Positions 7,431 to 32,274 of a stretch of 64,000 nucleotides of DNA are shown here, one piece after another; position 1 is the first letter of the stretch; each line of letters starts with the position of its first letter. The stretch is taken from contig JBGAHS010000001.1 in NCBI GenBank assembly GCA_044226015.1, positions 1,024,001 to 1,088,000 on the forward strand, read 5' to 3'. Source of the stretch: Candidatus Obscuribacteraceae bacterium (lineage in GTDB: Bacteria > Cyanobacteriota > Vampirovibrionia > Obscuribacterales > Obscuribacteraceae). The notes beneath the pieces were generated by a model. That model searched no databases, had not been told where the DNA came from, and worked only from the letters and a program-made list of their open reading frames with translations. The translations under genes were made by a program, and so were the position numbers.

Positions 7431-10400
7431 ATGCCACTTCCCGCAGAAAAAGATGACCACGAGCCGCGTGGTCAGAATGACTTTTTAAAACCTGATCCGC
7501 AAATCTTCCTTGCTGATTCCATGCCTAAGTGGAAAGCCCTGGAGATTCTTGATCAGAAGAATTCAGACAAGTCAACTGAAAGGAAGACTGTCACAAGAAC
7601 TGCTGCCGAGGCGCTTTCGGCTGAATATACCAATGAGCAGTTTGGACATTTGCGCCGCTCTCCTTTTCTTTCCAAAAACCGTTCAGCTGAAGGTCAGAAA
7701 GACGCTAAGGCTGAGTCTCCTAAAAAGCAGGCGGGTGACAATCCCGCCGTCGCCGTGAAGCCCGAGCAAGTTACAAAGCCGGCCGATCCTGAAAAGCCTG
7801 TGGGTCCTGATAAACGTGCCGAGGAGAAGCCATCTGCTATTGAAAAAATGCCCGTGAATGAAAAGCCTTCAGTAGCAGACAAGCCGGCTGAAGCGACTGC
7901 GTCCGAAAAAGTTGCTGACAAAAAGCCTAAAGACAAAGATGTTATTCGCGCAAGCTCAACTACTCCTGAGCCGGATTCCTCCGCGAAGAAATCTTTGCCC
8001 GAGCTCGTAATAGAAGACAAAGCTTCAAAATCTGCCGGCAACCTCGACTTCACATCGATGCTGCCGGTCATCAAGGACGCAGGAAGCAGGGCTGCTAGAG
8101 AACTTGGCAGTTGGGTCGATCAGCTTTCTGCAAAAGCAAATGAACTCAGTGAGTCGCTCAAGAAAATTCCGCAATCGATAACGGCTCCAGATGGTGGAGC
8201 GTGGAAGAGTTCTGACGGAAACTGGTCTTACGTTGACAAATCTGGCAAGACAGTTGAAAAATACGATGCGAAAGTCGACGGAGTCACTCGGCATGAGAAT
8301 GGTGGCACTACTGTAAATCTTGCTGATGGAAGAAGCATCAAGGAAAACTCCGATGGTTCGACATTTGAATACAATGCAAATCAGAAACTGAGTTCGATAA
8401 AGTATAAAGATGGCTCTACCCGCTCATTCGAATGGAGTGGCGATGACCTGGTTAAAATGACTTCCAAACTCGGCGAATGGACAAGAGTAAAAGACGACAA
8501 AGGTTCAGTTAAAGACCAATGGTTGCCGAAAGGAACGAGCACCCCCTGGTCAGGCGAAATCAATATTGACCAAAAGTCTGGTGAGCTTAAAATCGCTGGA
8601 AATACATATCGATCCGATTCCTCCATTGAGAAAACAAATGCTGATGGGACTCGGGAGATCAAATATGCAAACTCAGACACTGTCAAATTTGACAAGGAAG
8701 GACGCTTAAGCGAAATCCAGACGCAAGACGCGAAGAGAATTTTCTCATGGACCACGAACCCTTCAGCGACAGGCGAAAATGACAAGCAAGCTCTCTCCGC
8801 AATTCAGGTAATTAAAGACGGCAAAAACTATTTCCACACAAGGCAGAGTGATGGAAGTTGGAATGTCCAGACCTATGAAAATAACGCGTGGTCAGCATCT
8901 CAGTCAGAGAAAATTTCCTTTGCGGCAAATAATAAGACTGGTGAATATTCCTATGAAGAAGATGGAGCCAAGCACGTTCTTTCCCCCGGAAAGGGCGAAA
9001 AGGAAACCAAGCCTGACGGAACTGTACTTGAATATCAGGGCTCTCAGATTGTAAAAGCAACACAAGGTACGAATGTTCGTGAATTTGAATGGAAAGACAA
9101 GCAAATCGTTTCAGTCAAAGACTCAGCCAAGAACACAAGCTGGAGTTCTATCGACGGGAAATGGCAGTCGGACAAGGGAGATAAACTTCCCGGCAAGGCA
9201 TCCATTGATGACAATGGCAGTCTCATCGTTAAAGATGGAAACAAGAGTTCTGTTATCAAATTGGATGGAACTCAATATCAGCGAATTGAAAACGCGGCCG
9301 AAAAATCAACTGTAGACATCTCGAAGGACAAGGTTCAAGTCAAAGCCGGAGATGGTTCTACTCGCGAGTTCAAGCTCGACGAAAAAGGCGAAGTGGTGCA
9401 AGAAACCGTCCTCCGTAATTCGACAAGAGAGTCGTGGACCCGCGGAGAAAAGAAAACTGACGGAAGCTATGTTTGGACCAACGACCAGGATGCGGCTAAA
9501 ACCGAAATTCGCAGTTCTGTGACACAAAACGATGGGCAGTTGAAGATTTCATATCCAGATGGAAAGCAATATCAGGCGGACACCAATGGTGAAGAAGCTC
9601 TCGAAAACAAAAAGCAAGATTGGTCGATTAAGTGCAAGAATGGGCAACCTTCTGAATCGAAGTTTCCCGATGGAACTGTTCGAAAATATACTTTTGACAA
9701 ACCTGGTGAATCGCCAAAAACGGTCGAAGTCACAAACAAAGATGGTTCAGTAGTTAACATCTCTCGTGAGTCAGAGGGCGTTTACAACTACAAAACAAAG
9801 ACATCAGAGATGAAGTGGAATGTCAATTTCACAGTCAGCCGAGATGGAACATACAAATTCGTTGACAAAGACGAAAAGAACAAAGTGACCACGCGCACAA
9901 TTGATGGAAGCAAAACTGTTGAAGATCCAGCAAATAAATCTGTAGTTGAAAGCTACCGAGACTCGGTGCGCAGAGTGGTCAAAGACGGGAAATCCGTAGA
10001 GTTGGTGAAGGATGAGAAGAACCAGCTGAACGAATTGCGTGATAGTGCGAACAATGCTTCTTACAAGAGAAATCAAAGTGGAGAATGGGTCGCTTCTGCT
10101 ATCGATTCCAGCAAACCATTCAAGGATGATGGACTTGCACGTAAGGGTGAAATTTCGATTTCTGAAAAAGGCGCAGTCAGCTTTTCTGATTCTGATGGAC
10201 GCCTCGTTCGACAGGAACTTGGCGAAAAAGGAAAATTGATTAGCAGCAAAGAAAGCACTGTCGAAGCAACTCATCAAAACACAGCGATGAGTGATGCCGA
10301 CAAGGCAGCGCTCGAACAAACAATTCTCAACTACGCTAAAGACGCCAGTGTTTCAAGCATCGCAAAATCTGTGTTCCAGGAAAGCTTAAGCAATTTTGCT

Positions 10401-19196: not shown

Positions 19197-20783
19197 CTAC
19201 GGACCTCCGAGAGTCATATCGTAAACGTAAACCTGATCTCTGCCTTTCTCTTTTGCTTTGTAGAGAGCTTCATCCGCTCTCTTGAACAAGTCGTCGGGGT
19301 CGCTTGCATGCAGAGGAAAGTTTGCAACTCCAATTGACGCTGATATTGTTTTCCCCGTGCTATCGAGAATTGTCTCACTAATCAACTTCCGCACGCGCTC
19401 AGCAATGAGGACTGATTCCTCGAGCAGAGTATTCGGAAGAAGCAGGCAGAACTCTTCACCTCCATAGCGAGCTACGACGTCAATGGATCGGGAAGACCGG
19501 GACAAAACACTCGCTACTGCTTTTATAGCATCATCTCCAGCGGTGTGCCCGAACGTGTCGTTTATTTTCTTCAGGTAGTCCAGGTCAACAACCGCAAGGG
19601 TCATGGGCTCTGCATAACGCCTTGCCCTCTCAAATTCTTTGTAGAAACATTCATTAAAATTACGACGATTGGACACGCCGGTTAAACCGTCTGTCACTGC
19701 CTGAAGTTTCTTTTCTTCATGGAGGTCTGCGTTTTCTACTGCTACGGAAAGATGGTCGGCAAGTGCTCCGAAGAATGTTAGGTCATCGATGCTCCATGGG
19801 CGCGGCATCTTGCAATCTTGCAAGAATATTGCACCGATAGTTCTGTCGCGCATAATTAAGGGAATGATGAGCCCCGAAAGAAAACCAAAGCTGTTCAAAA
19901 ATTCTTTGTCGAAGCCTTGCGATGGTCCGAACTCGCCATCGCCCAATTCGCAGGGAGCAGTCTTGCTCATTATGCTACTAACGAAGGCCTGACCCTGTTC
20001 AGAAAAAAACTTTGATTGAGCTGGTTCGATGCTTGCATTGTTGAACTCATAAACTTGTAAACTTGCTGCCGGTCTCAGTATTAGACATCGGCTCAGGTCA
20101 AACTTCTGTCCGAGGCTATTAACCGAATTTTGCAGAACCTTTTGAATCTCTACCGAGCTGCGCATTGCGCTGGAAATTTCGTAGAGAAGCTTATCGCGCT
20201 CTATAGTGCGGAAGCGCAAAGCGTCTTTAACAGTCAAGTCCTGGATAAGCTTTCTAGTCTGATCTTCGAGATTTGCGTTCTGATCTTCCAGGTCATCGTA
20301 GCGGCTGCGGAGTCTTTCGTTTTCTCTTTTGACTTCTCTGATTTCCCATGCGTTTGATAACGCAGTGTGGAGTGGTAGCTCGTCCAACTTAGCCTTCACT
20401 GCTTCGATGTCAAAGCTCTTACCAGCAAGTAGTAACGCTGCACAGAGCTTTCCATCTTCCTGAATTCTGACATAGACAAGTTCCGTGTCGTCTGGCAGGT
20501 CTTCATCTGTGTCGTACTCTCCGACGGTTTTCTCATCGAATTCGCGGCTCTGTTCGAGTTCTTCGGCGAATTCGTTGCTTATCGATGTAAGAAGTTGCCT
20601 GTTTTGTCCGTAAAAATATTTGTCACTTACCGTCTCAACGTCATTGTCCCAGATAAGTACTGCTAGAGATTCTGGTTTGAAAGCAGATAGGAATTCGTCC
20701 GCAACTGACTCAAGCACCTCATTAAATTCCAGGGTGCCGAGCAATCGGAGATATTTGTTTGTCTGGGTTTTGGTGGATTTCAT
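19197..20783 (-). CDS. GAF-domain diguanylate cyclase
   Basis: Coiled coil, GAF, TDGLTG.SNRR, DLDYLKKIND.FGH, RSID I-site, GGEEF. Confidence 0.93.
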   Translation of the reverse strand: MKSTKTQTNKYLRLLGTLEFNEVLESVADEFLSAFKPESLAVLIWDNDVETVSDKYFYGQNRQLLTSISNEFAEELEQSREFDEKTVGEYDTDEDLPDDTELVYVRIQEDGKLCAALLLAGKSFDIEAVKAKLDELPLHTALSNAWEIREVKRENERLRSRYDDLEDQNANLEDQTRKLIQDLTVKDALRFRTIERDKLLYEISSAMRSSVEIQKVLQNSVNSLGQKFDLSRCLILRPAASLQVYEFNNASIEPAQSKFFSEQGQAFVSSIMSKTAPCELGDGEFGPSQGFDKEFLNSFGFLSGLIIPLIMRDRTIGAIFLQDCKMPRPWSIDDLTFFGALADHLSVAVENADLHEEKKLQAVTDGLTGVSNRRNFNECFYKEFERARRYAEPMTLAVVDLDYLKKINDTFGHTAGDDAIKAVASVLSRSSRSIDVVARYGGEEFCLLLPNTLLEESVLIAERVRKLISETILDSTGKTISASIGVANFPLHASDPDDLFKRADEALYKAKEKGRDQVYVYDMTLGGP

Positions 20784-21954: not shown

Positions 21955-23214
21955 GTGTCTGCAAACAGTGAGACCGAAACTGCCAGCTCAAACCCCTTCT
22001 TCGTTTTGCGGGATGCCAACTCCCAGAAGGTTTTCTGGGGGCAATTGATTTCGCAATCATGCGATAAGCTTCTCTCGGTTGGAATGATTTGGGTTTTAAG
22101 CACCAGATTTAGTCCTAAATGGGTGCCCTGGTTCATCGCGCTTGGAGCTCTGCCACACTTCGTTTTGGCTTTGAAGTCGGGAGATCTTATTGGGCGATGG
22201 GGCACTCTGCGCACTGTTATCTGGACCGATATTCTTCGAGGAATTTTGTTTGTTGGAATTGCAGCATCGATGCCGCTGCTCTCTGATGACAAAGTGCTTT
22301 TGGCGATTTTGATGGCTGCCGCGTTTGTTTCTAATATTGCTGGTGCTCTCTTCAACCCTGCAATTTTGACCCTGCCATTGGAACTAATGCCTGAAGGCGA
22401 GAATCGTGACAAATTGACCGCTTTGATTGATTCTTGTTTTTCCTGGGGTAACGTTTTGGGCCCACTGGTATCAGCGCTCAGTTATGCTTGGGTAGGTCTT
22501 GGGGGAATGCTTGCGTTAAATGGTTTAAGTTACTTCATCTCTGCGGCGTTGGCGCTGACGATTAAACTTCCCAAACTGATTAAGAGCGAGGAAGCAAAGA
22601 AGCAGGAACCTACAGCGAGCGAAGCACCCAAAACGAAGACCACGAAAGAGATTCTGAAAAGTCAACCAGTTATTTCTGGAATGCTTTTCACTTTTTTATT
22701 TATGAACTTCTTTTTGGCGCCTCTCATGATATTCATGCCCTGGTATGCGAAAAATGTGTATAGCGAAGGAATCGCAGCATTAGCAAAACTCGAATTCTCG
22801 CTGGGAATGGGAACTGTTGCAGGTGGTCTTTTGCTTTCTCTCGTCAAACTACCAGGAGCTACTTGGAAGCGTGTGAGCTTATCACTGCTTCTGATGGCAG
22901 TCTCCTATCTTGCATTCACGTTCTCGAAGAACATTTGGATAGCCTGTTCTGCAGTTCTCATGCTTGGGTTCTTTCTTTCGCTTGCAAATGTTGTTTGTTT
23001 GACATTTTTTCAAAGCACGCCTGAAGCCGAAGATGTGCCCAAGGTGATGGGACTTGTAAATTTGATCAGTGTTGCTTCCCTGCCTATCTCCATGGGTGTT
23101 GTGGGAGCGATCATCGAGAGAGTTCTTGTTCCTGATTTCGCCGCTATCTGTGCTGGGCTTGTAATTGGAATCGCACTGTTGATTCCGTTCATTCCTGGAA
23201 TCAGGAGGGTCTAA
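21955..23214 (+). CDS. MFS transporter (drug/macrolide efflux-like), first gene of the biosynthetic operon
   Basis: About 12 hydrophobic segments; FWGQLISQ, GDLIGRWG motif-A variant, LFNPA; AAGGAG SD. Confidence 0.88.
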   Translation: MSANSETETASSNPFFVLRDANSQKVFWGQLISQSCDKLLSVGMIWVLSTRFSPKWVPWFIALGALPHFVLALKSGDLIGRWGTLRTVIWTDILRGILFVGIAASMPLLSDDKVLLAILMAAAFVSNIAGALFNPAILTLPLELMPEGENRDKLTALIDSCFSWGNVLGPLVSALSYAWVGLGGMLALNGLSYFISAALALTIKLPKLIKSEEAKKQEPTASEAPKTKTTKEILKSQPVISGMLFTFLFMNFFLAPLMIFMPWYAKNVYSEGIAALAKLEFSLGMGTVAGGLLLSLVKLPGATWKRVSLSLLLMAVSYLAFTFSKNIWIACSAVLMLGFFLSLANVVCLTFFQSTPEAEDVPKVMGLVNLISVASLPISMGVVGAIIERVLVPDFAAICAGLVIGIALLIPFIPGIRRV

Positions 23215-23215
23215 C

Positions 23216-24370
23216 ATGCGTATTGTTATCGAAAAACCAGCCCTTGAGGATATCGATGAACTGTTGAAGTTATACTTCATGGTTTACGGACAAAACTATC
23301 CTATTGCGTTAGGTAATAACTCAGAAGCTGCTGCTCAAGCCGTTCTATCTGATGATTATGTTTGGTTGATTGCGCGAGACAGATCTCGCTCGCGTATGAT
23401 AGTCGGTTCTATGGTGTATGAATTAGATCGACTCGACAAAGTGGCAAAAGCGCTAGCTCTGGTCGTTCACCCCGACTACCGTAAAGTCGGAATCGCCTCT
23501 CGCTTGTGTGCCTGGGGCGACAAACTAATCGAAAAAGGTGGACCTTTCAATTCGATTTATACGACGACGCGAACGCAAGGAATTGGTCCGCAGCTAATCT
23601 TTTTGAAGGAAAATTATCTTCCGCTGGGAATTTTTCCGAACGCGCATAAAATAAAGCGGCATGAGACTACAACGCTGTTTGCCAAGTTTCAAGAGGGCGT
23701 GTTAGAAAGACGAGTCGCTACTGAAAAAATCCCTACGCGCTTGGTTCCGCTCTACCAAATAGTTCAGCGGTATTATCCCGGTTTGCAAATTCCTCCAAGT
23801 GAAAATCTGTCAGACAGATCGATCAAAATGCACTCCCCATGGGATACAAGCTTTGAGGCAATCTTTGCACCTCACTATGTGCTTCGAAGGTTTAAGGCTC
23901 AAATTACCGATACCAACGCGCAGTTCTATCCATTCCATTTGCCAAACTTGCTGATAGCTGATGACTCAGGTAAGGTCGAGATTTTTGCTTATTACAACCA
24001 GTTAGACGGTTATTGCACGCTAATTTCATGCAATCAACCGATGTACGCCTTGCACGAAACTTTTCCTTCATTGTTGGAGAAACTTCGTTCGCTCGGAATA
24101 ACTTATGTGGAAGTCTTGATTGGAGCAAACAGATTCGAGTCGCTGGAAGTCTTGATGCGAGCTCAATTCTTGCCCTCGGCTCTTTACCCTGGCATGCGAG
24201 AAATCAATGGCGCCACTTACGACTACGTGATCATGACTCGCACAATGGAACCGCTCGATTTCCGCGGCATGCAGGTCGAGCAAGCTTTCAAACCGTATGT
24301 TGACCAGTATGTTGCTCTCTGGAAGAAAATGCACCTCGATGCCCTGGAGGTCTTTGATGACTACCGCTAG
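23216..24370 (+). CDS. GNAT-family N-acyltransferase (LeupD-like)
   Basis: Acyl-CoA motif VVHPDYRKVGIA; starts 1 bp after the MFS stop. Confidence 0.82.
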   Translation: MRIVIEKPALEDIDELLKLYFMVYGQNYPIALGNNSEAAAQAVLSDDYVWLIARDRSRSRMIVGSMVYELDRLDKVAKALALVVHPDYRKVGIASRLCAWGDKLIEKGGPFNSIYTTTRTQGIGPQLIFLKENYLPLGIFPNAHKIKRHETTTLFAKFQEGVLERRVATEKIPTRLVPLYQIVQRYYPGLQIPPSENLSDRSIKMHSPWDTSFEAIFAPHYVLRRFKAQITDTNAQFYPFHLPNLLIADDSGKVEIFAYYNQLDGYCTLISCNQPMYALHETFPSLLEKLRSLGITYVEVLIGANRFESLEVLMRAQFLPSALYPGMREINGATYDYVIMTRTMEPLDFRGMQVEQAFKPYVDQYVALWKKMHLDALEVFDDYR

Positions 24371-25529
24371 TGTTTTGGTTCCTGATTCAAGTTCACTCCG
24401 AAAAGTGCAGCAGCTCTGCGATATCAGTGAACCATATCTGGTATCAAACGAAGCGGACGCCCTTTTCGTAGAAGCCATGCAAGAAATTGTTGCCTGGCAT
24501 TCTGAAAAAAATGAGTTCTACAGGAAACTACTTGAGCTGAAGCGCTTTGACCCGCACTCATTGAAAAAGGTTGAGGATTGCGCTTCAATTCCTTTCGTGC
24601 TTGCTAATTTCTTCAAGGCACACGAGCAAAAGTCAGTCAGTGAAGACAAAATTTCTGTTCATCTAACTTCGTCCGGCACCACCGGGCAGAAATCTCAGAT
24701 GTTTTTTGACGATTGGACCTTGGGTTCGGCGCAGCGGATGATTGATTTCATATTCGACTTTAATGGTTGGACCAGTGAAAACCCATGCAATTATCTCTTG
24801 TACTCATACGAGACCGAAGCTGATTCAAAGTTAGGTACTGCGTATACTGATAATTTCCTTTGCAAGTACGCGCCCATTAACCGAGTTTTCACCTCGCTTC
24901 GGCTCACGGGCAGTGGAACTCACGAATTTGATATTTTTGGTTGCATTGATAGATTGCGCGAGTTTGAAAAGGATGGTCGTCCTGTCAGAATATTTGGATT
25001 CCCAGCGTTTCTGCATTTTACGCTTGAGAGAATGCGGGCTTTGAAAGTGCCACCACTTAAGTTGTCTGAAGACTCGCTTGTATTCTTAGGTGGCGGCTGG
25101 AAGGGAAATGCGGACAAGGCTATCGATAAATTAGATTTATACCGTCATTGCAACGAGCTTTTGGGAATTCCAGATAAGCGCCTTCGCGATGGTTTTGGCT
25201 CAGTAGAGCATTGTATTCCATACATCGAATGTGAGAACCATCAGTTTCATGTTCCTGTATGGTCGCGAGTTTTTGTTCGCGATTTGAAGACTCTCGAGGC
25301 ACTTCCCTATGGTGAAAAAGGTTTCTTGCATTTTGTGTCCCCCTACATAACATCAGTTCCGGCAGCAAGTGTTTTGATGGGAGATCTTGCCTCTGTGCAT
25401 GAGGCGAAGACCTGCGGCTGTTCCCTAGAAACTCCATATTTCGTGGTTCATGGTCGTGCTGGTTTGTCCCGCAACAAGAGCTGCGCAGTCGCTGCTGCAG
25501 AGCTAATGGGTAAAGGGGGCAAGGTATGA
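24357..25529 (+). CDS. LuxE-like acyl-protein synthetase/adenylating ligase (LeupC-like)
   Basis: LTSSGTTGQKS, FGFPAF, GGGWKG, DGFGSVEH, C-terminal GRAG...KSCA; ATG 24357 with GGAGG SD overlaps the GNAT end. Confidence 0.88.
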   Translation: MTTASVLVPDSSSLRKVQQLCDISEPYLVSNEADALFVEAMQEIVAWHSEKNEFYRKLLELKRFDPHSLKKVEDCASIPFVLANFFKAHEQKSVSEDKISVHLTSSGTTGQKSQMFFDDWTLGSAQRMIDFIFDFNGWTSENPCNYLLYSYETEADSKLGTAYTDNFLCKYAPINRVFTSLRLTGSGTHEFDIFGCIDRLREFEKDGRPVRIFGFPAFLHFTLERMRALKVPPLKLSEDSLVFLGGGWKGNADKAIDKLDLYRHCNELLGIPDKRLRDGFGSVEHCIPYIECENHQFHVPVWSRVFVRDLKTLEALPYGEKGFLHFVSPYITSVPAASVLMGDLASVHEAKTCGCSLETPYFVVHGRAGLSRNKSCAVAAAELMGKGGKV

Positions 25530-28054
25530 GCACTTTAGCAACTCCGCACCTCTGGCAAGGGCACTGGCTCAGCGATGAAGAACTGGAAAATCGCCTGCCA
25601 AATCTAGCAGGTGATGTGCGTGTAGCACTTGCGTCTCCTTTTGAGGTTCGACACTTGCTTGATGCATGCGAACGTTTGAGCAAGCGCTTGCGCAAGAAAG
25701 ATGATGAGGTATATCTGGCTCTCGAGAAGCTGCTTTCCACCGGTTTTCGAATGGAAGAGGCTGAGCGCAGGAAGGAGTTAAAAGAGTTAGCTGACTTCTT
25801 GCGGCGAGCAGATCTCGAAGAAAAATTGGCTTGTGAGTTGGGCAAAGGTGACCCTTTCAATTTTGTTCGAGCTGATCAACGCGAGGACAATTTTGAACGC
25901 TGGAGCCCTCTAGGGTTCCTTGTTCATATTGCCCCAACAAATGCTTACAGTGCTGGTGCCTGGAGTATTCTGGAAGGTTTGTTGAGCGGAAACGTCAACT
26001 TTCTCAAGACTGGTGGCAGCGATGAAATATTTGCACAGTTGTTTTTGAAATATTTGACCGATGAAGACTTGTCTAACACGATTGCGCCTCGTATTTTTGC
26101 TTGCAGAATTTCTTCCCGTAACCAGAAAATGCTGACAGAGGTGCTTTCGCTCGCAGATGGCGTTGTCGTCTGGGGAGATGAAGGTGCAATTTCTGGTATC
26201 AAAGCTATTTCGCCGCCACATGCCCGGTTTATTGATTGGGGTCCCAAAATTTCGTTTGCTTATTTTGCAGAAGATTGCTTAGAAGATGAGGAGTCGATTG
26301 AAGGGCTGGCGTTCGAGTGTTGCCGCATGGAGCAGCAAGCGTGTTCGAGCCCTCAATGTGTTTATGTGGAAACAGAAGACCGCGCTATTCTTGCGAAGTT
26401 TGCGCAACGATTGGCATCTAGTTTGCAGCAACATTCGTTGCAAGTTCCAGTAAAATCACCTTCTGGGCAAGAGCAGGCTGAAATCACTTCGGTGGTTGAG
26501 CTATGCAGGCTGGAATCATGCCTTGGACTAACGGACTTAATAGAAGACCCAAATGGTGACTGGCGCATTTTAATTGATTATTCAAGCGTGATGAAGGCAT
26601 CTCCGCTCTATAGAACCATCTGGGTTAAACCAATGCTGCGTGGAAAAATCGTCGAGACGCTCAGTCCCTTCAGATTTTTTCTACAGACTGCTGGTCTTGC
26701 TGCAAAATTGAACTCGATTTCTGAGTTGAGTGAGTCGCTGATTCAAGCAGGTGTTTTGAGAATCACAAAATGCGGTGAGATGCTGGAAAGCTACAGTGGT
26801 GAACCGCATGATGGTGTATATGCGCTGCAGCGCTACTCAAAGAAAATAAGCATGCAGCGAGGTGCAGACCTGGCAGGAATTTCGACATTTGCAGATTTGA
26901 AATTGTCTCAATTCTCTCCGCCTTCCGCCCCAATTCTTAGTAAGGAAGGCTTTCAGGCTCATAAAGTTGAAGAAGAATACTCCCATCTGTTTTTCAAGAG
27001 TGGTGGAAGCACTGGAGAGCCAAAGCTGTCGATATTTAGTTATGATGATTACCATCACCAAATGCGAGCTGCTGCTTATGGACTTGTTGCTGCCGGGCTC
27101 GACGTGAAAGTCGATCGTTGTATGAATCTCTTCTTTGCTGGAGGTTTGTACGGCGGTTTTGTGAGCTTCTTCACGATTTTGGAAGAACTCGAAGCCATTC
27201 AGTATCCTATGGCTGGAATTAACGACCTTGAATTAGTTGCTAGAACAATCGTTTCCCAGAAATGCAATGTGCTTCTGGGCATGCCTTCTTACATCATTCA
27301 GCTGTTTACCAATAATGCTGAGCTGTTTCGTAAGAATCAAGTGGTGGAAAAGATTCTCTATGGTGGCGAGCACTTCAATGAAAGCCAACGAAGACATTTT
27401 CAGAGAGAGTTCGGAATAAAGACTATAAGATCTTCCGGCTATGGAAGTGTAGATGCTGGTCCGATTGGCTACCAGTGCACACACTGCACGGGCGCTGTTC
27501 ATCACCTTCACAGTCGGCTGCATATTATGGAACTGCTGGAACTTGATCGCGATGTGGCGGTCGAAGATAAAGAGCCCGGCAGGGTGGTTCTCACTTCACT
27601 CGCTCGCGCAGGGCAGAAAATCGAGCGATATGATATTGGTGATCTGGCAAGACGGCTAAGCGGAGATTGTGAATGTGGTCGTCGCTCACCCAGGTTTGAG
27701 TTGCTGGGAAGGCACGGTGATGTTTTCCGGATAGGCTCTGCGTTTTTCAATTATGGAAAGTTTGTACAGATAGCTGGCGAAGTGTTCGATTTTGCAGGCG
27801 AGCTGCAGATTGTGCTGCGACCTTCAAGTGGTAGCCGACAGGAAGAACTCGCACTTTATCTGTCCAATCACAGGGCTCATTCGACAGAGGAAATTAAAGC
27901 CGCCTTTCTTGATAATTATGCGGATTTGCATGAAATCGTAGTTCGAGAGAATCTTTTAGATTTGACAATTACTCATGTCGATACCGACTCTTTGAAGAGA
28001 ACCACAGGTAGTGGCAAGCTTCGAAGAATAATTGATGAGAGAGCAGGAGTTTGA
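25526..28054 (+). CDS. Fusion of LuxC-like acyl reductase and PaaK-like adenylating ligase (LeupB-like)
   Basis: PLGFLVHIAPTN, WGPKIS, EQQACSSPQ (C273); C-half KSGGSTGEPK, LYGGE, GYGSVDAG, RYDIGD; ATGA overlap with the upstream stop. Confidence 0.88.
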   Translation: MSTLATPHLWQGHWLSDEELENRLPNLAGDVRVALASPFEVRHLLDACERLSKRLRKKDDEVYLALEKLLSTGFRMEEAERRKELKELADFLRRADLEEKLACELGKGDPFNFVRADQREDNFERWSPLGFLVHIAPTNAYSAGAWSILEGLLSGNVNFLKTGGSDEIFAQLFLKYLTDEDLSNTIAPRIFACRISSRNQKMLTEVLSLADGVVVWGDEGAISGIKAISPPHARFIDWGPKISFAYFAEDCLEDEESIEGLAFECCRMEQQACSSPQCVYVETEDRAILAKFAQRLASSLQQHSLQVPVKSPSGQEQAEITSVVELCRLESCLGLTDLIEDPNGDWRILIDYSSVMKASPLYRTIWVKPMLRGKIVETLSPFRFFLQTAGLAAKLNSISELSESLIQAGVLRITKCGEMLESYSGEPHDGVYALQRYSKKISMQRGADLAGISTFADLKLSQFSPPSAPILSKEGFQAHKVEEEYSHLFFKSGGSTGEPKLSIFSYDDYHHQMRAAAYGLVAAGLDVKVDRCMNLFFAGGLYGGFVSFFTILEELEAIQYPMAGINDLELVARTIVSQKCNVLLGMPSYIIQLFTNNAELFRKNQVVEKILYGGEHFNESQRRHFQREFGIKTIRSSGYGSVDAGPIGYQCTHCTGAVHHLHSRLHIMELLELDRDVAVEDKEPGRVVLTSLARAGQKIERYDIGDLARRLSGDCECGRRSPRFELLGRHGDVFRIGSAFFNYGKFVQIAGEVFDFAGELQIVLRPSSGSRQEELALYLSNHRAHSTEEIKAAFLDNYADLHEIVVRENLLDLTITHVDTDSLKRTTGSGKLRRIIDERAGV

Positions 28055-28069
28055 TGGGACTAAAATCAG

Positions 28070-29344
28070 ATGAAGATATTTGATTGGAAAGAACTTGCTA
28101 AATTCGCTAAGCAGAATTCAGTTTATTATGGAAAGCTCTACTCGGGCATCAGTCATTTCGAGAAATTGAGCGATTTGCCAGTGGTTGATCAAGCCGAGTT
28201 TTGGGCTGCAAACACGAGTAAAAACAATCAAGTATTCACCTCGAAGCAGACGGATGGAATTGTCTTCAAGAGTGGAGGAACAACCGGCAATCCAAAGTTC
28301 TCCGTTTTCTCCAAAGAAGAGTGGGACCTATTTACGAGATTTTTTGGGGAAGGTATGAACAAGGGCGGTATGGTCGCAAGTGACCGCATTGCTAACCTAT
28401 TTTATGCTGGAGAATTATATGCTTCGTTCATTTTTATAATGAAGTGCATCGAATCGGCGCCGACACCGGCATTGCAATTTCCTATCAGTGGAAGCACCAA
28501 GCCGGAAATTATTTTGCAGACCGTAAGAGAATTTGATATCAATGTTCTTGCCGGACTGCCCACCACAATAATGAATGTAGCTGAATTCTATGCACATAAC
28601 CGGGAAGCCTTCCCCGAAGTTAAAGTGAGCAAGATTCTTTTTGGCGGTGAATCTATGTATCCCGACCAGCGCAGGCGACTGCAAGAATTGTTTCCCGGTG
28701 TTTCCATTCGCTCAATCGGATATGCCAGTGTTGATGCTGGTCTGCTTGGTTATTTTGATGATAGCTGTGAGGCGGATGAACACAGATGTTTTGGAACTGC
28801 CACAGTGCTTGAGATTGTGGATGACGATACCAACGAACCTATAACAGAGCCCAATAAGCCGGGCAAGGTCCTGTTGACGAGTCTGATCCGAGGATATATG
28901 CCGATAATTCGCTACCCTGTAGGCGATAGAGCAATATGGACGGAGGAAGCTTCGGAGTCAAATCTTGATCGCAAGTTTCTAATTCTTGGACGTTCTGAGG
29001 AAGCCGCAAGAGTGGGACCTGTTTCGGTTTACTATGAGGACATGCGTTCATTTTTGGATGGCTTAGAGCTGGATTTTCAAGTGACCGGATTTCAATTGCT
29101 GATTTCGCATTCCGAGTTGAAAGACAAGCTGACGGTGAGAATAGCATGTCCCGAGAAACCAGCTGACACCAAAATAATTGATCAATTCATCGCTGACTCG
29201 TTCGGTCGAGAGCGAAAAATGTTTGCTGAAGCCTCAGCAGATAACAAGATTCATCCGCTGCATATCGACTGGGTTGAGCCGTCTGCATTTGAAATCAATC
29301 CTAGAACAGGCAAGCTTCGCAGAGTAATAGACAATCGAAATTGA
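28070..29344 (+). CDS. PaaK/F390-synthetase-like adenylating ligase (LeupA-like)
   Basis: KSGGTTGNPK, LFGGE, GYASVDAG, IIRYPVGD, RTGKLRRVID. Confidence 0.88.
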   Translation: MKIFDWKELAKFAKQNSVYYGKLYSGISHFEKLSDLPVVDQAEFWAANTSKNNQVFTSKQTDGIVFKSGGTTGNPKFSVFSKEEWDLFTRFFGEGMNKGGMVASDRIANLFYAGELYASFIFIMKCIESAPTPALQFPISGSTKPEIILQTVREFDINVLAGLPTTIMNVAEFYAHNREAFPEVKVSKILFGGESMYPDQRRRLQELFPGVSIRSIGYASVDAGLLGYFDDSCEADEHRCFGTATVLEIVDDDTNEPITEPNKPGKVLLTSLIRGYMPIIRYPVGDRAIWTEEASESNLDRKFLILGRSEEAARVGPVSVYYEDMRSFLDGLELDFQVTGFQLLISHSELKDKLTVRIACPEKPADTKIIDQFIADSFGRERKMFAEASADNKIHPLHIDWVEPSAFEINPRTGKLRRVIDNRN

Positions 29345-29435: not shown

Positions 29436-30473
29436 TCAATCAAGAATTTTTTTCAGCCATAGCTTAAGCGTATCAACAGAGTCGAAGTCCAGTATGGATT
29501 CAACTAGCAATTCAAGTTTCGAAATCGAAAGTTGTTGTATTTGTGCCTCAACAACACTGTCAATTTTTCCGAATCGCTTGCTCAGGAGGCGCAAAAGCGT
29601 TTTTGCTGTGAGCTCACGGGCTTTCTCTAGTCCTTCCTGTCGACCTTCCTCGCGACCTTCCTCGCGACCTTCCTCGCGACCTTCCTCGCGACCTTCCTCG
29701 CGACCTTCCTCGCGACCTTCCTGTATAGCTTTCTCTCGTGCTATGCGCAAATCTTCCTGGTATGAAACGAGGCGACTAATTTCATCCCTTTGAACACGAA
29801 CTCGAGCTTTGTATCGCTCTCTTTCTAAATCGTCTTGACTCAGCATAACTAACTCTTCAAGTGCCTTCTTTATATGAGTATTGCATAGAGACTTTGGCAG
29901 ATGGCTGCTGTCTAAGTGGTCAGCATGGCGAAAAAAGTAGAGCCATGCGTCCAAACCATTGCTTATTTTCTCGGGCATTAGATTGAACTTGGGCAATTCC
30001 AACACCACTATTAATATATCAGAACTGAAAACAAAGCCGTTTTTTCGATTCCGAAGCTCAAAGGGCAGGCAATAATCTTCGGTTTCGGGAAAGAGAACAA
30101 AATCACAAAAGCATATGGAAATAGTTGGTCTTAGTTCATTGTATGGGTCTCCTGCGCGCAGCTGTTGCTGGTGCAATTCTGCCCAGTAGAAGAGTAGTCG
30201 TTCTTTTATTGGCCGCTCAAAAAGCAGCTGCATCTCCACATCAAATTGTCGCCCACTGCAATCACGAGCTTTCACATCGACAATTGAAAGCTTGTCGTCA
30301 ATGCTATCCTGTTCACTGAAAGGGTTCAGCAATTCAAGTGAAATTATCTCTTCCACCGCAAGAAGTGGTTTTAAAACAGCATTGAGCAAATCTATGAGTA
30401 AGGCTATATTTTGCTCTCTTCCGAAAAGCCATTTGAATGCCAGATCAATTTTGGGATCGATTCCAGGTTTCAT
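29436..30473 (-). CDS. Rpn-family (PD-(D/E)xK, YhgA-like) nuclease with DUF4351-like C-terminus
   Basis: DPKIDLAFKWLFG, SIVDVKA, DVEMQ, ELPKF, EEGR repeats; ATG 30473 with GGAGG SD (ORF track start 30620). Confidence 0.88.
   Translation of the reverse strand: MKPGIDPKIDLAFKWLFGREQNIALLIDLLNAVLKPLLAVEEIISLELLNPFSEQDSIDDKLSIVDVKARDCSGRQFDVEMQLLFERPIKERLLFYWAELHQQQLRAGDPYNELRPTISICFCDFVLFPETEDYCLPFELRNRKNGFVFSSDILIVVLELPKFNLMPEKISNGLDAWLYFFRHADHLDSSHLPKSLCNTHIKKALEELVMLSQDDLERERYKARVRVQRDEISRLVSYQEDLRIAREKAIQEGREEGREEGREEGREEGREEGREEGRQEGLEKARELTAKTLLRLLSKRFGKIDSVVEAQIQQLSISKLELLVESILDFDSVDTLKLWLKKILD
29641..29724. repeat. 12-bp coding tandem repeat CGACCTTCCTCG x6 plus one variant (EEGR)
   Basis: Six identical units at 29641-29712, then CGACCTTCCTGT. 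Confidence 0.95.
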
Positions 30474-30912: not shown

Positions 30913-32274
30913 GTGAAGCGTTCTTCCAGTAGCAAGAGAAACACAAATGCTGCGTCACACACTGTGCGAAAGAATCGGAGTGCTAATTCTGATTGCGCCA
31001 AAGCTACTGAACAGATTCAATACTTAAGTCCCAATGTCAGCAGTACCAATATATGTGTACCATTCTCTATAAATAGCTCTGACCTGAAACAAGGAGATTT
31101 TTCCATTGCTCTTGGAGGCTCAAGCAATTCTGGAATTGCGTTACCTCATACCGCTAGCCTCAATACTGACGCTACCATTCAGCAATCGCATTCACAGCAA
31201 TCTTTAGCTCAGTCGTTAGACAGGAAGACTTCGGAGGAAAATCAAAAGCCTCCCGCAAAAAGAGTTTCCGAAATTGAATTGGCCAGGCAAAAGTACATCC
31301 GTTTTTTGCAAAAGGAACGCGGTCTTTCGCTGAATACAAGTAATGCTTACAACAACGATATTTCTGCTTTTATTGCCTGGCTTGATTCCTCAAAAGTTGA
31401 AGTCAATCGCAATAGTTTGACCAAGTACTTGCAGTACTTGAAGGCGGAAGGAATGCAAGCTAGCACTCTTGCACGAAAGTTAGCCACCTTGCGAGGTTGG
31501 TTTGATTGGCAGAAGAGTAACCAACTGATTTCGAGTGACCCTAGCGATGGAATCATGAACCCTAAACTTGCGCGAAGGCTGCCGCAGGTTCTCAGCAATA
31601 ATGAAGTCACAAATATGATCGGCGCGGCTTCTACCCCACGCGAAAAGGTTATTGTTGAATTGCTTTATGGTGCCGGTCTTCGGGTTTCTGAATTGATTAC
31701 TCTGAGTTTGAATGATGTGAATTTATCTCACGGGTATGTTCGATGTTTAGGTAAAGGCAGCAAAGAAAGAATTGTGCCAATAGGTCGTGCAGCGATCGGG
31801 GCGATTAAAGAGTATCTTGACTCTGACGAGCGACTGAATCCAAAGGATGCGCCGCCGAGCACGAAAAAGAAGCGGGGGCGTCCTAAGAAAACTGTGAAAG
31901 ATATTGCCACTACTTCTGGTGGCAAGCGCAAAAAATTAGAGTACTCTGTCCCTTTGCTTGCTGACCGGCAGGGAAAAAATTTGAATCGACTTGTTGTCTG
32001 GCAGACCGTGAAACGTCTAGCCCAGACAGCAAAAATAAAGAAAGAAATGTCTCCGCATACTCTCCGGCATAGCTTTGCGACTCATTTGCTTGAAAACGGA
32101 GCAGATTTGCGGGTGGTTCAAGAATTGCTAGGACATTCCAGTGTTGTGACAACCCAACTCTACACACACATAAGTCGCAAACATCTCAAGAAGGCCTACA
32201 TGAGTGCTCAGCTGAAGTTAGACGACCTTGCTTTTGCCCGAGAAGTCGAAAAACAGGCAAGTCTGGGTGATTGA
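30913..32274 (+). CDS. xerD: Tyrosine recombinase, XerD-like, with N-terminal extension and basic insertion
   Basis: ERGLSLNT..AY..D, LYGAGLRVSEL, GKGSKERIVP, SPHTLRHSFATHLL, VQELLGH, TTQLYTH; start uncertain. Confidence 0.85.
   Translation: MKRSSSSKRNTNAASHTVRKNRSANSDCAKATEQIQYLSPNVSSTNICVPFSINSSDLKQGDFSIALGGSSNSGIALPHTASLNTDATIQQSHSQQSLAQSLDRKTSEENQKPPAKRVSEIELARQKYIRFLQKERGLSLNTSNAYNNDISAFIAWLDSSKVEVNRNSLTKYLQYLKAEGMQASTLARKLATLRGWFDWQKSNQLISSDPSDGIMNPKLARRLPQVLSNNEVTNMIGAASTPREKVIVELLYGAGLRVSELITLSLNDVNLSHGYVRCLGKGSKERIVPIGRAAIGAIKEYLDSDERLNPKDAPPSTKKKRGRPKKTVKDIATTSGGKRKKLEYSVPLLADRQGKNLNRLVVWQTVKRLAQTAKIKKEMSPHTLRHSFATHLLENGADLRVVQELLGHSSVVTTQLYTHISRKHLKKAYMSAQLKLDDLAFAREVEKQASLGD

Follow-up and report, generated by a model that had tools for sequence, protein, structure and literature searches.

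A Leup-type operon in an Obscuribacteraceae genome, predicted to make a peptide aldehyde without a carrier protein

The leupABCD genes and an adjacent major facilitator superfamily (MFS) gene, said to have been described by Li et al. in 2020, reportedly make up the operon for leupeptin in Klebsiella michiganensis/oxytoca, Photorhabdus and Xenorhabdus. Passages of the literature state that the acid form of leupeptin is made first and is reduced afterwards, with ATP and NADH (PMC7714073, citing Suzukake 1981), that separate AMP-dependent ligases and a reductase make it in X. bovienii (PMC11212599), and that K. oxytoca makes both Arg and Lys versions together with pyrazinones derived from them (PMC11480411). 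Here we describe an operon of this kind in a 64,000-nt stretch (the window) of contig JBGAHS010000001.1 in the genome of a Candidatus Obscuribacteraceae bacterium (GCA_044226015.1). The operon lies at 21955-29344 on the plus strand (7.4 kb) and its five genes encode an MFS transporter (P0001), a tandem GNAT acyltransferase (P0002), a LuxE-like synthetase (P0003), a LuxC-ligase fusion (P0004) and a stand-alone PaaK-like ligase (P0005). It is a variant of a published pathway type and no new kind of system. We consider, with a probability of about 0.6, that the product made and exported by the cassette, without the help of a carrier protein, is an N-acyl tripeptide aldehyde of the leupeptin class whose end is basic (Arg or Lys).

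Like leupABCD, the cassette has a LuxE-like A, a reductase-ligase B and a ligase C, tightly coupled and in A-B-C order, accompanied by a GNAT and an MFS gene but by no carrier protein, and its catalytic cysteines and pocket motifs are the same. Unlike leupABCD, it carries its GNAT ahead of A (after C in leup), the GNAT has 384 rather than 305 amino acids (aa) and only the N-terminal half in common, the MFS protein has no detectable relative at E<=1e-4 in the one beside Klebsiella leupA, the B ligase has G638/F545 where leup has L/I/V and L/M, and the enzymes fall in a separate clade. With LuxC-LuxE of luminous bacteria (PDB 7XC6) the enzymes are predicted to share adenylation, a Cys-to-Cys thioester relay and NADPH reduction, although identity is only 22-23%, LuxD and LuxAB are not linked and the reductase is fused to a ligase. 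PaaK1/2, NatL2 and AjiA1 have the fold family, the P-loop and the A5 and A10 motifs (Lys831, Lys415) in common with the window ligases, which nevertheless are about 18-21% identical to the PaaK-type proteins of related genomes and form clades of their own. NatL2, a PaaK-family enzyme that condenses two building blocks without CoA according to excerpts from PMC7204872, is a precedent for condensation free of both CoA and carrier. Peptide aldehydes made by non-ribosomal peptide synthetases (NRPSs), such as antipain/MAPI, livipeptin and the product of the Streptomyces roseus leupeptin cluster, would belong to the same product class, but the cassette lacks condensation and carrier domains and the route, as far as partial accounts describe it, is unrelated.

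Counterparts of LeupA, LeupB and LeupC

The Klebsiella operon was located through the primers leupA_f and leupB_r, given with a 1,235-bp product in a part of PMC8283571. Eight metagenome loci were found with leupA_f, leupB_r is present in all of them (8/8), and the primers span 1,235 bp in locus L033, which encodes an MFS protein, LeupA, LeupB, LeupC and LeupD and whose LeupB carries the name K. michiganensis in the protein collection. A family search (13/401 genomes matched) led to two Photorhabdus and three Xenorhabdus operons, which an exact look-up then named, and true LuxE and LuxC references were taken from a lux reporter plasmid. The link to leupABCD made in the first-pass annotation held up: the best genome matches of Klebsiella LeupA, LeupB (E 1e-152) and LeupC (E 1e-78) are P0003, P0004 and P0005, respectively. 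The comparison it had proposed with the leup operons of Klebsiella, Photorhabdus and Xenorhabdus gave 49-52%, 37-39% and 32-38% identity for A, B and C (49-52%, 37-39% and 32-37% for the Photorhabdus and Xenorhabdus operons alone). A grouping with LuxC/LuxE or with true PaaK, which it had named as the contrary outcome, was not seen, the trees placing the proteins with Leup enzymes. Our comparisons of protein sequences thus show the three enzymes to be one-to-one counterparts of LeupA, LeupB and LeupC, with the predicted catalytic residues intact.

P0003 (24357..25529, plus strand, 390 aa, Pfam LuxE) is 50% identical to K. michiganensis LeupA and 22% to true LuxE, and scores 82 bits against an NCBIfam LuxE cut-off of 550. 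The working residues of LuxE are Lys238, Arg355 and Cys364, the last handing its acyl group over to a cysteine of LuxC, according to the portion of PMC9157457 that deals with them; in the alignment they are retained in P0003 as K249, R367 and C376, while LuxE Arg354, at the LuxC interface, corresponds to Gly366. Cys376 (codon at 25482..25484, plus strand), the predicted swinging thioester cysteine, aligns with LuxE Cys364, and a cysteine stands there in 51/52 aligned LuxE-like rows. In a FastTree phylogeny of the 52 LuxE-like proteins, all 16 LeupA-type proteins from operons, including those of the window and Klebsiella, fall in a 17-row clade (support 96; the 17th row is from locus L040) far from LuxE. 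In pocket-lining segments that we picked ourselves and that include general ATP-binding motifs, P0003 is identical to LeupA at 29/37 positions and to LuxE at 12/37. Its acidic pocket residues Glu152 and Asp165 form a motif common to leupeptin producers; Asp165 is present in 15/16 of the operon LeupA-type rows and in 5/5 Photorhabdus and Xenorhabdus rows, and is Met in LuxE. The pocket thus seems to fit a basic last residue, without amounting to proof. LuxE-like proteins at 30-40% identity form a large tier (P0371-P0421), one of which, at L041:6007-8408, has a separately encoded LuxC-like reductase for a partner, without ligases.

P0004 (25526..28054, plus strand, 842 aa, Pfam LuxC 1.7e-85) consists of a LuxC-like thioester reductase (about residues 39-438) and a PaaK-like ligase (about 447-842). 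It is 37% identical to LeupB over 843 columns and 23% to true LuxC, with an NCBIfam LuxC score of 89 bits against a cut-off of 750. The reductase retains the predicted catalytic cysteine, Cys273 (codon at 26342..26344, plus strand), assigned by the QACSSPQ motif, common to LeupB, and by alignment with the catalytic Cys of LuxC, as well as the His428/Asp429 pair. The Phe that follows the catalytic Cys of LuxC, at the cleft entry, is Ser in P0004 and in LeupB alike. In the reductase tree, a long branch supported at 100 unites the 17 Leup-side proteins with one from Salmonella; this is a quick tree, with long outgroup branches that are unreliable for rooting. A lone fusion of the Obscuribacterales branch, from another genus of the same family (genome G022, L045:7977-10373), has an intact ligase half and a reductase half that has lost the QACSSPQ cysteine; no partner of the LeupA, LeupC or GNAT kind lies within 19 kb.

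P0005 (28070..29344, plus strand, 424 aa, Pfam AMP-binding) is 37-38% identical to LeupC. The ligase-domain tree resolves a LeupB clade of 30 rows and a LeupC clade of 17 rows (support 99 each), both with window and Klebsiella members and both standing apart from four PaaK-type proteins of related genomes. In chosen pocket segments the window ligases match their Klebsiella counterparts at 30/42 and 29/42 positions, against 12-13/41 for PaaK-type proteins.

Predicted pathway, product and competing explanations

By homology, the tandem GNAT would first transfer an acyl group from acyl-CoA to the nitrogen of a free hydrophobic amino acid, after which each PaaK-like ligase would adenylate the growing acyl-peptide acid and couple it to the next free amino acid. 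P0003 would then adenylate the finished acyl-tripeptide acid, load it on Cys376 and hand it to Cys273 of the reductase, a predicted relay, and NAD(P)H would release the aldehyde, which the MFS protein would export to inhibit serine and cysteine proteases outside the cell. The assignment of steps to enzymes is inferred here; the three adenylating domains equal the number needed for an acyl-tripeptide aldehyde, since two amide bonds and one reduction have to be made. That the main product is an N-acyl peptide aldehyde, whatever its residues or cap, is very probable, and the pocket of P0003 suggests that it probably ends in argininal or lysinal. The earlier proposal of a peptide-aldehyde pathway of the leup type is supported, with two qualifications: the product and its residues are predictions, and the cassette is not special to this lineage, since it belongs to a wide family.

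The enzymes predicted to cap and to export the product are less close to those of leup. P0002 (23216..24370, plus strand, 384 aa) is identified by its predicted fold, Acetyltransf_7 being below its Pfam cut-off; the AlphaFold2 model is a tandem GNAT with a mean confidence score (pLDDT) of 91. Foldseek matches it best to 2wpw, a clavulanic-acid tandem GNAT, and to a histidine acyltransferase, at low TM-scores of 0.33-0.38, and in the VIA structure search it is mainly residues 1-166 that match single GNATs, with Z up to 14.8. Modelled by itself, the C-terminal half also takes a GNAT fold, with phosphinothricin-type amino-acid acetyltransferases as its nearest matches. A profile comparison with LeupD (hhalign) gave 95% over 181 columns, the kinship being limited to the first 100-190 residues. 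Because P0002 is related to LeupD in its N-terminal half only, the acyl cap may differ from acetyl or propionyl. Named relatives of P0002 come from Obscuribacterales and Bdellovibrionota, and the actinomycete and Elusimicrobiota cassettes carry tandem GNATs of this type at 25-33% identity. P0001 (21955..23214, plus strand, 419 aa, Pfam MFS_1 5e-27), the predicted exporter, resembles Mef(A), EntS and H+ antiporters under the cut-offs of those families (TIGR00900 1.5e-33, also below cut-off).

Several observations weigh against a leupeptin-like product. The residue before YG[ST]xD in the LeupB-type ligase (638 in P0004), which we take to align with Ile236 of PaaK1, is L/I/M/V in 63/63 Leup-clade proteins but G/A/S/T in 33/34 of the closest and 71/85 of the further window-side proteins, counts that include kin and hence rows that are not independent. 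In P0004, Gly638 is paired with Phe545, where the producers have L/I/V and Leu/Met. Asp165 is also found in 12/31 more distant LuxE-like representatives, and is therefore no specific signature of Arg. The two window ligases, which are paralogues, are already identical to each other at 24/42 of the chosen pocket positions, so their match to the Klebsiella ligases largely reflects general conservation of the ATP site. Database searches with P0002 gave no BLAST match to LeupD at E<=1e-3, and it is no full-length LeupD orthologue. In a concatenated A+B+C tree of 21 operons, a branch supported at 100 separates the nine enterobacterial rows from Obscuribacterales, Elusimicrobiota, actinomycetes and Azorhizobium, in a quick, midpoint-rooted tree whose rows are the best matches of each side, a choice that favours such a split. 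By these protein trees, the window operon is placed within the wider Leup family and outside the narrow enterobacterial leupeptin clade, and we know of no product for any member of its side of the tree.

The strongest competitor, which we hold to be unlikely but by no means negligible, keeps the assembly logic and changes the chemistry: the peptide aldehyde would again be N-acylated, but its end would not be basic, its inner residues would be aromatic, or its cap would be longer or branched, and its targets would be chymotrypsin-like, cysteine or proteasome-type proteases. Tyropeptin and strepin are peptide aldehydes of such other chemistry. Besides the separate clade of the window-side operons and the small residue at 638 with Phe545, this explanation gains from the second GNAT domain, absent from LeupD, from the long-chain histidine acyltransferase among the fold matches of P0002, and from an Azorhizobium relative with Lys in place of Asp165, which means that the pocket can change within the family. 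Yet the LeupA-type pocket motifs are nearly identical to those of Photorhabdus and Xenorhabdus, and Gly at 638 is compatible with leupeptin residues because the LeupC of leupeptin producers has Gly at the equivalent position too. The swap at 638/545 may be compensatory, or it may change a residue.

The aldehyde itself could also be an intermediate only, the working product being a pyrazinone or a reduced alcohol used as a signal. The leup operon of Klebsiella and Photorhabdus also gives Leu-Arg pyrazinones after proteolytic cleavage, as stated in a section of PMC11480411; nevertheless, the absence of any conserved peptidase, oxidoreductase or regulator from the flanks (54 open reading frames (ORFs), 11 loci) makes this improbable for the window's cassette. 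More improbable still, the ligases could condense aryl or other non-proteinogenic acids in an amide or ester, in the manner of NatL2 and AjiA1, and the reductase would make an aryl aldehyde. The closest solved structures of the window ligases are indeed PaaK, NatL2-type and AjiA1, but these are weak matches (E 1e-6 to 1e-18) compared with those of LeupB and LeupC given above, and aryl-acid biosynthesis genes are not linked to the operon or to the sampled flanks. Finally, it is hardly credible that the operon encodes a fatty-acid reductase of the Lux type, with long-chain aldehydes as products, or a unit for phenylacetate catabolism: Pfam LuxE and LuxC are above cut-off and a luciferase-like monooxygenase occurs elsewhere in the genome (one, on contig C4), but identity with luxCDE was rejected on NCBIfam scores far under the cut-offs, the Ser at the cleft entry, no match to the LuxD family (PF02273) in the whole genome (92% complete) and no luxAB beside the operon, and identity with PaaK on scores of 53-76 bits for TIGR02155 and NF041878 against cut-offs of 646-700 (for TIGR02155, 54 against 646), on the position of the ligases outside the PaaK-type outgroup clade, and on a separate PaaK-type gene in the genome at C11:883883.

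The host genus and the wider family

A LeupA-like gene was found in 6/104 genomes of the host family and in 6/401 of the class; all six carriers belong to the window's genus (its own genome and 5/7 others), and the two congeneric genomes without the gene are 91% and 70% complete. Five-gene cassettes in the same order are present at L002, L003, L007, L010 and L046, and likewise at L001, where the MFS gene is cut by the contig end. The closest named records of the fusion protein are from Candidatus Obscuribacterales/Obscuribacteraceae genomes, at 63-71% identity. Recent transfer was considered and rejected, since among 374 genome windows the tetranucleotide distance of the operon ranks at the 52nd percentile; the simplest reading, we infer, is that the window's genus acquired the self-contained cassette long ago. 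A conserved partner gene was likewise rejected: none recurs among 54 flanking or accessory ORFs from 11 loci, chosen from 124 listed and from additions at L009 and L040, operon genes left out.

The fusion family is broad, with 1,071 of 7,999 candidate proteins matching at E<=0.001 (distant matches included), nine plasmid records covering at least 80% of the fusion, and members in Streptomyces, Bdellovibrionota and Elusimicrobiota. Plasmids of Streptomyces (L029), Streptantibioticus cattleyicolor (pSCAT, NC_016113, L030) and Kitasatospora (L044) carry a cassette of the window type with a tandem GNAT, in the order ligase-MFS-GNAT-A-B. We presume these to be candidates for known actinomycete acyl-tripeptide aldehydes, for which we know of no gene assignment. 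A complete leupABCD, at 73/66/68/52% identity to Klebsiella, is found on the conjugative IncF plasmid CP054717 of Salmonella enterica (L028:5668-11426) and leupABCD also occurs on a second Salmonella plasmid. In Azorhizobium doebereinerae (L009:2836-14584), the LeupA-type enzyme with Lys replacing Asp165 is accompanied by a LeupD-like GNAT fused to a HATPase (anti-sigma-like) domain and by an Orn/Lys/Arg decarboxylase upstream, and this cassette may load a different last residue. An Elusimicrobia locus (L006:1-16479) has the fusion, a LeupC-type ligase and a GNAT, with no LeupA-like match in 8 kb upstream. On the Streptomyces europaeiscabiei plasmid NZ_CP109155 (L040:5301-9749), a LeupA-like gene 46% identical to P0003 and nested in the operon clade occurs with a LeupB-type reductase that stands alone, ligases being absent; their neighbours encode a DUF692/MbnB-type enzyme, an MBL hydrolase, a YcaO protein and an MFS protein. 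The next small ORF (9588-9749, P0518) contains four FPFR repeats; speculatively, a ribosomal precursor with an Arg-ended core could be reduced there to a peptide aldehyde, a route to argininals through a peptide made by the ribosome and modified after translation (RiPP).

A bolder interpretation, which we offer only tentatively and regard as doubtful, is that a far larger, uncharacterised family of carrier-free lines for peptide aldehydes exists, with the leupeptin operon as a single tip. Its tandem-GNAT branch (Obscuribacterales, Bdellovibrionota, Elusimicrobiota and Streptomycetaceae) would make new protease inhibitors in which a few pocket positions of the ligases determine another acyl cap and other inner residues. 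If true, it would give this Obscuribacterales genus its first natural product and would supply a kit of interchangeable enzymes for peptide aldehydes. If the favoured explanation is right, the NRPS-independent leupeptin route, known from Gammaproteobacteria that live with animals, extends to a non-photosynthetic cyanobacterial relative from sludge. Comparison of products across branches would reveal which pocket positions choose each residue. The cassette is small and has no conserved accessory genes, and is therefore directly testable in E. coli; the same cassette type is also available on plasmids of culturable actinomycetes. Among the papers listed by our literature search, none dealt with the tandem-GNAT branch or described an operon or product of this kind from Obscuribacterales/Melainabacteria, an absence that is unproven, as Li et al. 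2020 may list distant homologues.

Operon layout and neighbouring genes

The five co-oriented genes are joined, as the first-pass annotation had it, by a 1-bp gap, a 14-bp overlap, an ATGA overlap and a 15-bp gap, all read from the sequence and in agreement with the ORFs. The start of P0003 was set at the ATG at 24357, which has GGAGG ahead of it, although the longest ORF would open at 24297; a purine-rich stretch resembling a ribosome-binding site precedes 4/5 of the operon starts and is weak for P0005. The motifs it had named are all in place, TSSGTTG at residue 104 of P0003, QACSSPQ (with Cys273 intact) at 271 and KSGGSTG at 491 of P0004, and KSGGTTG at 67 of P0005. Pfam matches above cut-off are MFS_1, LuxE, LuxC and the AMP-binding domain of P0005, whereas that of P0004 is, like Acetyltransf_7 in P0002, below it. 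The annotation's claim that luxA, luxB, luxD and a carrier protein are missing also agrees with the Pfam scan: across the five operon genes and three neighbours it found neither a condensation domain of the NRPS type nor a carrier domain, and among those neighbours no lux or carrier-protein gene.

In X2, an independent activated-sludge run of 2016, a single contig covers 19000-29679, with 12 differing letters and one gap, the latter outside the operon. Since this contig carries the operon intact, its arrangement is not an assembly artefact; two further runs (X5 and X7) hold no more than fragments of the stretch and were left out of this check. No RNA run was among the sequencing runs listed as holding it. 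A scan for promoters and terminators was uninformative, with 5 and 8 sites, at or below the shuffle means of 9.2 and 9.0. The flanking genes lie on the minus strand: upstream, a 99-aa ORF without a Pfam match and a GAF-GGDEF diguanylate cyclase gene (19197-20783), and directly after the operon an Rpn-type PD-(D/E)XK gene with EEGR repeats (29436-30470). A XerD-like recombinase, read from the sequence, follows on the plus strand at 30913-32274.

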